Source of the DNA: Candidatus Komeilibacteria bacterium
Lineage (GTDB): Bacteria; Patescibacteriota; Patescibacteriia; UBA1558; UBA10009
Assembly (NCBI GenBank): GCA_026396575.1
Contig: JAPLWM010000007.1
Location: 76,760-140,759 of the forward strand
DNA: 64,000 nt
Direction: 5' to 3'
Shown here: positions 56,367 through 60,977 of the stretch, in pieces
How positions within the stretch are numbered: position 1 is the first letter of the stretch
Layout: each line of letters begins with the position of its first letter
Notes under the pieces: generated by a model
Seen by the model: only the letters and a program-made list of their open reading frames with translations
Databases searched by the model: none
Told to the model about the DNA's origin: nothing
Position numbers and translations under genes: made by a program

Positions 56367-59300
56367 TTAATTGCTCGGGGTGTAAATTTTATCACTCGTA
56401 AGCGAAATCCAGAAACCGTCACCCGGGTTGATTGTTGTTACCGAATTAAAGATGCCGGTCGTGTTGTTGAAGCCCCAAAGGCCGCTCCACGACTGCAAGC
56501 TCGCAAACGCATTTATAGGAGTACTATTGGCCTCGCCTGGAAGTTGGTAGTAGCCGATAAGGTTCCAACCTGTTTGGAGCGAGCGCGAGGGTGGCGGAGT
56601 GGGTCCGGCAATGAGAAGCGTTCCCGAACCATAAAGATTTGCGTTATCGGTAACACTCAACCAGTAACCAAAGCCAGTGGTCATACGGTCAAGATTATTG
56701 GTGCCTGAAGGGTTGCCCGGGACGTACACCAGCCAACCACCAACCGCGTTCGGATTAGTCGGATCATAGGACCATACCGCGTCAATATTGTCAGCTGCGT
56801 TTCCGAGTACCGCGGCAATCGCTGTATTGCTTGGAATAACAGGAAGGGAAATCAGGTTCCAACCGCTTGCGTTAGCGTTGAGGTTAATGGAATACGTGGT
56901 TGCTGTAGTAAATTTGATATTGCTATAGGTCGGCAAAGCATTGCCCGAAAGATCAGTAACGCCAGCGAGCGTTATAGTGTATGTTGTGTTATTAGCAAGC
57001 GGGTTACTGGGCGTAATTGTTACTACATTTGTTCCCGAGTTGGTTATGGTAAATCCGCCGGAAATTGTCGGGCTAAATGAAACATTGCCGTTTTCCACAT
57101 TAACCGCCTCACTGAAAGTAATTATAATCGGCGTAGTCGGGCTGATGTTTAAGGCATTAATTGAAGGAGTATAAGAAAGAACCGTTGGAGGGGTAGTATC
57201 CAGAATGGTCAGTGTTCCTGAAATATAAGTAACGGCATAGTTGTCACCTGCTGTGACAGTGCCCTGATTAATTGTATACGATCCTAAATCTTCTCCAACA
57301 TCACGTGTAAGTGAACCACTAATTAAGTCGCCTTCTATTAGTTCGCCGCTTGTAATTTGATATGTAAGATCTGGATCAGGAGTACCATAACTTTTAGTTT
57401 TTGCATCAGCGGTTATAGTAATCGGTTTTTGTGTAATCGCAAACGTATCTGAATCAAGATTCAATGAGTAGTTAGAACCAGCAGTTAAAGTACCAATCTC
57501 ATAAGCATAATTGCCAACATTTTCACCGGCAATACGGCTCAAAACGCCAGTGAAAGAATCTAAACCAATTAAAGCAGGGTTAAAAGTATATGCGAAAATT
57601 GGATCAGCTTCGCCATAAACCTTGGTCTGAGAATCATCGGCCGTAACTGTGATTGGCTTTGCAGTGATCGTGAAATCAGCACCAACAAATGTGATGTCGT
57701 AATTGCTGTTCGTTAAAGTGCTCGTGATAGCATAGGCGCCAACATTCTCGCCAGCAGCGCGTGAAAGCGAACCAATAAGGGTGTCTTCATTAACGAGAGA
57801 GCCGGAAGTAATCTGATATGTAAGTAAAGGATCATCGTCACCATATACTTTGGTTTGGGTATCAGCTGTGATGGTAATCGGAGCTGGCCTGACAGTTAAA
57901 GTTCCTGAAGCAAAGGCGATGTCGTAGTTAGCGGCAGTGGCGCCGGAAACGGTGATTTCGTAAGTGCTAACAGGACTTGTCTCATCTGCTGATGTGGAGA
58001 GTGATGCTGGCGTATTAAGGTCAGTCGAGGTGTCTTCGCCCATAAAACCAACATAGCTTGCAGTTAAATTTGGATTCGCAGTGCCATATACTTTACTCTG
58101 GTCATCAGCGGTGATTGTAAGTGTGACTCGAGTAATGACGCCAGTTGTATCGTTAAAGGTATAGCTGTAGTTATTGCCATTGTTTCCGTCAATTACTACT
58201 CCGCGTGGTGTAAGTATTTTATTTTCGCCAACATTTTTGTCGTCGTATGTTTCTATGAAATTAGCTGTATCTGTGCCAATTAATGAACCATCTGGGAATG
58301 TAGGTATTGCTGTAGCACTCATAGTGCCATCATAGGTCTTAGAGTTTGTTGCGGCCGTAACTGTGATTGGCTTTGCAGTGATCGTGAAATCAGCACCAAT
58401 AAATGTGATGTTGTAGTTGCTGTTCGTTAAAGTGCTCGTGATAGCATAGGCGCCAACATTCTCGCCAGCAGCGCGTGAAAGCGAACCAGTCAGAGTGTCT
58501 CCATTAACGAGAGAGCTAGAAGTAATCTGATATGTAAGTTCAGTATCATCTTCGCCATAAACTTTACTCTTAGCATCAACAGTAATGGTAATCGGAGCTG
58601 GCGTGACAGTTAAGATTCCTGGAGTAAAGGTAATGTTGTAGTTAGCATCAACGGCATCGGATGCGGTAATTTCATAAGTGTCAACAGGACTTGTCTCATT
58701 TGCTAATGTGGATAGAGAAACTAGCGTGTCAAGGTCAGCCGAGGTGTCACCGCCCACAAAACCGTCATACTTTGCAGTTAAATCTGGATTCGCAGTGCCG
58801 TATACTTTGCTCTGGTTATCAGCGGTGATTGTAAGCGGGGCCTTAGTAATCTCGCCAGTAGTGTCAGTAATAAAACTGTAGCTGTAGTTATTGCCGTCAT
58901 TATTATCATTAACTATCCCGCTCGGTGTAAGTGTTTTGTTTTCGCCGACATTTTTGTCGTCGTATGTCTGAATAAAATTCGCCTCATCGTCTCCAACTAT
59001 TGCTGGCGAAGAATCTGATGTAATTGCTGGCGTTTCATCTGAATTTTGCGTGCCGTCGTATGTCTTACTATCTGTTACAGCAGTAACGACTATAGGACGA
59101 GGGTTAATATTACCTGTAGTGGTGTTTATTGTGCCAATTTCGTAATTATTTTTATCGGCCCCGGTAAGGGTAAATCCTATTGCTGTTACTGTTTTATCGG
59201 ATCCTACATTTTTGTCAGCAAAAGTTGCCGAACCGCCAGCAACATCAACATTTTCTTCAGGAATCACGCCATCAAGCGTGTGGCCGATAACATTCGCATC

Positions 59301-60977: not shown

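Follow-up and report, generated by a model that had tools for sequence, protein, structure and literature searches.

A candidate phase-variable surface fibre with a CT repeat in its leader in a Candidatus Komeilibacteria genome

The Hop-family adhesins SabA, HopZ and BabB of Helicobacter pylori carry CT repeats at the 5' end of their genes, and the Hop tract sits inside the region that codes for the signal peptide. In the Opa proteins of Neisseria, CTCTT pentamers are repeated in the leader-peptide coding region, where frame switching controls the adhesin. The H. pylori gene oipA likewise has 5' CT repeats, in which slipped-strand changes in the number of units switch a surface protein ON and OFF (PMC10564699). 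Here we describe a gene that opens in a similar way, found on a stretch of 64,000 nucleotides (hereafter the window, always meaning this whole stretch) from Candidatus Komeilibacteria bacterium (GenBank assembly GCA_026396575.1, contig JAPLWM010000007.1, positions 76,760 to 140,759 of the forward strand). The gene encodes a predicted secreted protein built from YDG and MBG modules and begins with a run of seventeen CT units. We consider it likely that its product is a long fibre, secreted to the surface and phase-variable by slipped-strand mispairing, with translation switched by the (CT)17 tract.

Bacteria of the candidate phyla radiation (CPR/Patescibacteria) are thought to live on host cells; most are unculturable, and the regulation of their attachment is almost unknown. 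A surface protein with PTD repeats varies within a population of Gracilibacterium, for which slipped-strand mispairing has been discussed (Sieber et al., 2019, PMC6851277). That paper is the nearest precedent in the searchable literature, in which we found no report of ON/OFF switching based on simple sequence repeats (SSRs) for CPR/Patescibacteria. The mechanism itself is already known, and within the same literature CPR/Patescibacteria are new for it.

The CT tract and its variation among orthologues

The fibre gene is a single open reading frame (ORF) whose product is identical to NCBI MCX6785614.1, encoded on a contig of 148 kb (coordinates of all features are collected in Table 1). On the coding strand the gene opens with ATG AGA AA(CT)17 GCG, the forward strand of the tract reading (AG)17. 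No other dinucleotide repeat of at least five units occurs within the 64 kb, and the number of (AG)7 matches expected from shuffled sequence is 0.00. The tract follows the start codon and precedes the basic n-region and hydrophobic core of the predicted signal peptide, in which we read K21/K23, a core at residues 25-42 and a putative cleavage site AMA|A (AMA followed by AAT). Between the tract and the hydrophobic core there is no in-frame ATG, GTG or TTG. When changes in tract length were simulated, the full-length protein was obtained only at 11, 14, 17 and 20 units, and every other length gave a peptide of 13-22 amino acids (aa). The window gene thus has properties expected of a contingency locus, namely a perfect repeat in the 5' coding region, a repeat unit that is not a multiple of three, and loss of the full product upon a one-unit change with no start codon to rescue it. 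The perfect CT periodicity, with no mixing of Ser and Leu codons, further argues that a DNA repeat is maintained here and not a Ser-Leu peptide. The window carries an ON allele. Rescue of OFF alleles by transcriptional slippage or programmed frameshifting is unlikely at a dinucleotide tract.

Orthologous loci were gathered by exact-protein look-ups and by a scan with an alignment of the N-terminal module. Their starts are conserved as MN(H/Y)xNK, and many then have a (TC)n tract in the same place, with lengths that span 5-12 units and are in frame or not. The gene is ON in L016, with (TC)12, and in L023, with (TC)11, and P0003 reads SLSLSL in frame. OFF lengths are found in L002, with (TC)9, in L005 and L006, both with (TC)8, in L007, with (TC)5, and in L009, with (TC)7. 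At these OFF loci the ATG frame terminates just past the tract, and the genes are otherwise intact across 5.6 kb. Orthologues that lack the tract carry interrupted remnants, such as TCGTTTTTCTCTGGTTCA, and all of these are in frame.

Both states also occur among contigs that are otherwise identical. The ON length (TC)12 is present in five assemblies (L102-L105 and L016) and the OFF length (TC)11 in three (L099, L100 and L101); L099 and L102 are 99.96% identical over 8074 nucleotides (nt), and their differences amount to one CT unit and one single-nucleotide polymorphism (SNP). The sample series with this orthologue includes ERZ4903125, ERZ27254842 and JGI 3300025311 for the OFF state and ERZ27254845, ERZ27254759, ERZ27254752 and JGI 3300025323 for the ON state. 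L005 and L007, both OFF, are 99.7% identical and carry (TC)8 and (TC)5, respectively. The recurrence of the same lengths in independent assemblies, together with the intactness of the OFF genes, argues for a hypermutable contingency tract over assembly noise or simple decay.

The OFF alleles have left a trace in protein catalogues as well. P0002, P0011, P0124 and P0126 were called as N-terminally truncated proteins without a signal peptide, with starts such as "MSGFF..." in P0002 and "MAISP..." in P0011, and the 90%-identity cluster of P0009 includes members of 1916/1917 aa as well as members of 1878 aa. Such truncations are an artefact that arises systematically when phase-variable genes are annotated for metagenome catalogues, and a warning for annotation, as OFF alleles stand in public databases in this form.

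We further note that genes with Replic_Relax and TrwB/DUF87 coupling-protein domains lie upstream of the fibre gene in L102 (1-591) and in L103 and L104 (1-630); in the (TC)11/(TC)12 population the fibre locus may be situated beside or on a mobile or conjugative element. In L024 (1915-2010, Azambacteria-type), comparison with L025-L028 reveals a frameshift in the signal-peptide region that is not due to a repeat, with a G9 run nearby. This frameshift may stem from a sequencing error or from inactivation of another kind.

In the proposed switch, slipped-strand mispairing in (CT)17 would turn translation ON and OFF at random and in a reversible manner. If the tract grew or shrank by one or two CT units, the signal peptide and everything downstream would fall out of frame and translation would end 2-6 codons past the tract, whereas changes of three units would restore the frame. 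A population would then contain both cells with the fibre and cells without it, as expected of a bet-hedging contingency locus. Gene conversion and recombination between modules may slowly reshape the stalk and so provide a second mode of variation. The fibre would mediate attachment to a host cell or surface, held on the cell by its C-terminal domain and by the protein encoded just downstream. The window population itself presumably varies in tract length, and a link between the fibre and an epibiotic lifestyle is plausible.

Several points weigh against this interpretation. The window strain is represented by a single assembly, an exact look-up of its protein in the contig index having given no match, so that variation is extrapolated to it from orthologues that are 41-53% identical. 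Expression of the fibre and binding by it are predictions, and to call it an adhesin is to rely on domain families in which most members are uncharacterised. Short-read assemblies can miscall the length of a repeat, a concern that is countered by the finding of the same lengths in independent samples. The OFF alleles might in principle be dead genes, and here their intactness across 5.6 kb speaks to the contrary.

Architecture and proposed display of the fibre

In a Pfam scan the whole protein matches MBG_2 (PF18676, E=5.7e-118), YDG (PF18657, E=3.7e-54) and Big_5 (PF13205, E=1.6e-18). The protein was also cut at its module borders and every piece scanned singly against the Pfam gathering scores (25 bits for MBG_2 and YDG, 23.6 bits for Big_5). 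Seven MBG_2 modules (59-89 bits each) and five YDG modules (43-69 bits each) all score above these thresholds, and Big_5 reaches 75.6 bits at residues 1258-1360, where its full profile (1-105) is covered. From the N-terminus, the modules follow one another as YDG1, MBG1, YDG2, YDG3, YDG4, MBG2, MBG3, YDG5, MBG4, MBG5, MBG6, MBG7 and Big_5. A preliminary description of this DNA had proposed a surface protein made of MBG-like modules, followed by a bacterial Ig-like domain and a C-terminal region with two GWNLI segments. The MBG-type repeats and the Ig-like domain are recovered by the profile matches, and both GWNLI segments are present in the last 178 residues; the description of the modules as uniformly MBG-like holds for seven and fails for five of the twelve, which are YDG. 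The surface location proposed there is consistent with a predicted secreted, repeat-built protein of MBG type with an Ig-like domain. The first ~240 residues of the mature protein and the last 178 residues have no Pfam match, and a scan of the fibre against NCBIfam gave no match. Homologues that share module types with the fibre number in the hundreds.

Table 1. Features of the fibre locus, given in positions of the window except for the last eight rows, which refer to the related locus named in each
Feature	Positions	Strand	Basis
Whole gene, MBG/YDG fibre, predicted secreted repeat protein, 1536 aa	56367..60977	-	ORF and Pfam
Start codon and putative signal-peptide region (aa 1-47)	60837..60977	-	read from sequence
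(CT)17 tract, gene nt 9-42, codons 3-14 (SLSLSLSLSLSL), proposed ON/OFF switch	60936..60969	-	repeat scan, simulation
N-terminal module (aa 48-289), 'ISIDTTS' motif, candidate distal tip	60111..60836	-	AF2 model; no Pfam match
YDG1, MBG1, YDG2, YDG3 (aa 290-623)	59109..60110	-	Pfam, module comparison
Tandem unit A, YDG4 + MBG2 + MBG3 (aa 624-865)	58383..59108	-	repeats, Pfam, alignment
Tandem unit B, YDG5 + MBG4 + MBG5 (aa 866-1103)	57669..58382	-	repeats, Pfam, alignment
Longest exact match between units, 72 bp	58417..58488	-	partner at 57703..57774
MBG6, MBG7 (aa 1104-1257)	57207..57668	-	Pfam, module comparison
Big_5 bacterial Ig-like domain (aa 1258-1360)	56898..57206	-	Pfam
C-terminal domain (aa 1359-1536), internal repeat of two halves that both begin with GWNLI	56370..56903	-	alignment, AF2
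Downstream gene, predicted secreted protein, candidate adaptor/anchor	55253..56362	-	ORF, Pfam, locus comparison
Terminator-like hairpin, strong, bidirectional, 14 pairs; closes two-gene unit	55187..55229	.	
IPHQFFG gene, L001	4880-5920		
IPHQFFG gene, L002	4857-5540		
IPHQFFG gene, L003	10467-11081		
IPHQFFG gene, L005	6838-7425		
IPHQFFG gene, L099	6612-7304		
IPHQFFG gene, L106	10304-11371		
IPHQFFG gene, L108	6806-7384		
IPHQFFG gene, L107	10322-13253		

Other family assignments and anchoring modes did not apply to the fibre. The homologue P0004 carries the label trimeric autotransporter adhesin from the Joint Genome Institute (JGI); the whole fibre protein has no Pfam match to a YadA-type beta-barrel anchor with coiled-coil stalk at E<=1, and its C-terminal domain, as modelled with AlphaFold2 (AF2), is all-beta and globular with short helices. 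Anchoring through sortase (LPXTG), PEP-CTERM or PGF-CTERM was rejected, there being no LPxTG, NPxTG, PEP or PGF motif in a protein that ends in ...DKIYTPSN. A sequence-profile search of the PDB yielded only Kelch-blade-like motif matches of 20-27 residues, none of which passed alone, and these were not accepted as homologous domains.

The N-terminal module is modelled by AF2 as two beta-sandwich domains with a confidence score (pLDDT) of 89.1, and it is a candidate for the distal tip of the fibre. Its matches in the PDB are generic only (velvet, intimin D0-D1, cohesin-FN3 and PrgB Ig), and no specific family could be assigned to it. The same two-sandwich 'ISIDTTS' module is also found, at 35-58% identity, in metagenome-assembled genomes (MAGs) labelled Verrucomicrobia and Bacteroidota (Ferruginibacter) (L091-L098), and therefore is not restricted to CPR.

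At the other end of the fibre, the C-terminal domain is modelled with a pLDDT of 92.4 and a predicted template modelling score (pTM) of 0.89. Its residues W15-N-L-I-S and W113-N are invariant among 19 homologues. The domain has no Pfam model, and a Foldseek search against the PDB and BFVD gave no significant match. A profile made from it matches 19,420 cluster representatives at E<=0.001, of which the stricter threshold of E<=1e-10 leaves 7,739; the GWNLI domain is a very large unannotated family. It is found almost always at the extreme C-terminus, often behind Big_5, and its passengers are unrelated to one another, including subtilases, P-domain proteins and fn3 proteins besides fibres. This variety of partners suggests a general display module, and in the fibre the domain is a candidate for docking the protein to the cell surface.

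The downstream gene begins 4 bp past the stop codon of the fibre gene. Its product, a predicted secreted protein, combines an N-terminal domain of ~95 aa (residues ~33-128) without a Pfam match, which we call IPHQFFG after its motif, with a PG_binding_1 domain and repeated 'GALLRGSDKKIYV' modules ('GxLxRGxDxKIYxx'). A homologue search with the N-terminal domain returned three proteins. Locus comparison finds the domain at 49-70% identity in the gene that directly follows the fibre gene at seven loci (L001, L002, L003, L005, L099, L106 and L108), and in a divergent version (27% identity) in the second gene downstream of the fibre in L107. What changes from locus to locus is the C-terminal anchor. 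It is a dockerin in the seven loci, in six of which a cohesin-like protein with a C-terminal membrane helix then follows, the contig ending at this point in L002; the Pfam matches to dockerin and cohesin in these loci are mostly weak or faint. The window protein has PG_binding_1 and 'GALLRGSDKKIYV' modules in this place, and the same repeated modules are present in L107. A cohesin-dockerin display was therefore rejected for the window itself, where the dockerin is replaced by PG_binding_1 with wall-repeat-like modules and no cohesin gene follows. The conservation of the IPHQFFG protein with swapped anchors suggests a tether between fibre and cell, and we infer that it probably holds the fibre via the constant C-terminal domain.

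These elements can be drawn together, tentatively, into a modular display system of the Parcubacteria group, in which a fibre docked through GWNLI, an IPHQFFG adaptor with an interchangeable anchor (either a dockerin pairing with a membrane cohesin or a binder of peptidoglycan or wall) and a CT switch would act together, and which would be the first contingency locus described for CPR; we regard this wider proposal as possible but doubtful. If it is true, groundwater populations would mix attachment-competent and fibre-less cells, and the CT switch could govern host attachment, host range or escape from phages.

The fibre might be phase-variable without being an adhesin. It could serve as an envelope scaffold, as in a cellulosome-like display or a fibre associated with an S-layer, or it could be a phage receptor that is lost under phage pressure, and we give this explanation a minor share of the probability. 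At the loci examined, fibre genes with the same N-terminal module and C-terminal domain do precede those for dockerin-bearing and cohesin-like proteins, the C-terminal domain is shared with subtilases, P-domains and fn3, and none of the domains found in the fibre is a ligand binder of known specificity. A long stalk, a distinct tip and phase variation are typical of adhesins, but they are typical of phage receptors too.

The 714-bp tandem units

The preliminary description had also reported two nearly identical adjacent units of 714 bp, at 57641-58354 and 58355-59068, and had taken them for a recent duplication. The borders given there are one base off the codon phase and do not fall at domain borders, and we place the units as in Table 1. 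The period of 714 bp exceeds the maximum of Tandem Repeats Finder (500), and repeat finding and pairwise alignment were used instead. Direct repeats spaced 714-717 bp are present in the gene, so the period stands, but near-identity does not, as units A and B share 78-79% of their DNA and 70% of their protein sequence in gapped alignment. Identity climbs along the unit, from 66% nt (59% aa) in the YDG4/YDG5 pair through 81% nt (69% aa) in MBG2/MBG4 to 89% nt (83% aa) in MBG3/MBG5, and values of 92-98% are reached only in the last ~150 bp.

The recent date does not stand either. MBG2 and MBG4 are 69% identical to each other and 68-69% identical to modules of P0031, P0012 and P0002, MBG3 is 84% identical to a module of P0012 versus 83% to MBG5, and the best orthologous matches of YDG4 and YDG5 are different modules. 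Since the two copies of a module resemble each other no more than they resemble modules from other organisms, the duplication is not young, and YDG4 and YDG5 are, judged by sequence comparison, old paralogues. Over their last 150 nt, MBG3 and MBG5 are 92-96% identical and differ by 4 synonymous codons, versus 17 when this stretch is compared with the P0012 orthologue, which together with the 72-bp exact match points to local gene conversion. The units thus look like an older module duplication overlaid by local gene conversion, with the 72-bp match as a probable conversion tract and a possible substrate for unequal recombination. The residual identity may suffice for unequal crossing-over, so that expansion and contraction are possible, and because 714 is a multiple of 3 any gain or loss of a unit would stay in frame. 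None of the related contigs showed a copy-number variant of the unit. The locus had been called hypervariable with its dinucleotide tract in view, and this is borne out by the ON and OFF lengths of its orthologues; the hypervariability is due to that tract.

Variation of the locus could also come mainly from the units, if these were a recent and nearly identical duplication in which homologous recombination changes the number of copies, but we think this improbable. The direct repeats with 714-bp spacing exist, unit changes would be in frame, and the exact match with the highly similar last ~150 bp could support exchange of the RecA type; orthologues, moreover, range from 1460 to 1930 aa and differ in module order. 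Set against this are the divergence of the units, the equal closeness of their modules to those of other species and the finding of no copy-number variant among related contigs, and the orthologue contigs with 99.96% identity vary in the CT tract and not in module number.

Most improbable in our judgment is that the tract is a low-complexity Ser-Leu spacer in the n-region, with out-of-frame versions that are assembly errors or decaying pseudogenes and no regulated switching: the evidence does come from short-read metagenome assemblies, four of the eight tract-bearing lineages are OFF, which could be gene loss, and several orthologues function without a tract, but the repeat is perfect as DNA and not a synonymous mix of Ser and Leu codons, its lengths (5, 7, 8, 9, 11, 12 and 17 units) vary far more than its flanks, (TC)11 and (TC)12 recur in three and five independent assemblies of the same strain, and the OFF genes bear no further lesions across 5.6 kb.

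Genomic neighbourhood and comparison with known systems

A horizontally acquired island was rejected, the GC content of the locus (42-46%) equalling the window mean of 42.7%. At 61247-62181 (minus strand), immediately upstream of the fibre gene, an AbiEii-type nucleotidyltransferase toxin gene (Pfam E=1e-17, PADLOC AbiEii) overlaps a DUF6922 gene, an arrangement that resembles a toxin-antitoxin pair of type IV or an abortive-infection pair. A gene for a CAP-domain protein that also has bacterial TSP3 repeats and membrane helices at its C-terminus (62208-63566, minus strand) is syntenic with the fibre in the distant relatives L005 (8433-9374) and L107 (2081-3604), with 37-39% identity to the L005 copy. 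On the other side, at 53773-55133 (minus strand), a 322-aa protein without a Pfam match shows a PADLOC match to the N-terminal part of DISARM DrmA (E=1.9e-8), and the small protein adjoining it matches the STAS-like DUF4325 weakly; these could form a small defence or signalling pair. Further along, a RuBisCO large-subunit gene adjoins a gene of the IF-2B family, similar to ribose-1,5-bisphosphate isomerase (51416-53577, minus strand). Such a pair is typical of the CPR nucleoside-salvage pathway, and the neighbourhood fits a CPR genome.

If the gene of this fibre, the largest at the surface of these bacteria, is indeed a contingency locus, bacteria with reduced genomes would use heritable and reversible ON/OFF bet-hedging in the way that pathogens do. 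The state of such a switch can be read directly in metagenomic reads, which would make attachment dynamics, host switching and phage pressure testable in natural samples without cultivation. In addition, the C-terminal domain, which is unannotated, and the conserved gene for the adaptor could belong to a general display system.

The described systems resemble the window locus in different respects. Closest in mechanism are the Hop adhesins of H. pylori, which like the window gene have a CT tract in the 5' coding region and switch by frameshifting. Hop proteins, however, are beta-barrel outer-membrane proteins, whereas the window encodes an unrelated YDG/MBG fibre of 1536 aa; the two organisms also differ in phylum and envelope, the window tract has 17 units, and the switching proposed for it is predicted from sequence comparison. 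In Neisseria Opa, as in the window gene, the repeat comes after the start codon and ahead of the hydrophobic core of the signal peptide; Opa differs from the window gene in the pentameric unit, in belonging to a multigene family of small outer-membrane proteins and in the absence of homology. The Gracilibacterium protein is, like the window fibre, a CPR surface protein with variable repeats; those repeats are in-frame units of 9 nt with synonymous variation and no ON/OFF switch, in contrast to the frameshifting dinucleotide in the leader of the window gene. A likeness to cellulosome-type cohesin-dockerin assembly is seen in seven related loci and not in the window. Finally, the giant extracellular proteins with MBG_2 (PF18676) and YDG (PF18657) that occur in many phyla are built from the same types of stalk module, to which the clade of the window gene adds the 'ISIDTTS' module, a C-terminal module of Big_5 and GWNLI, and the CT switch, none of which belongs to the Pfam MBG_2 and YDG families.

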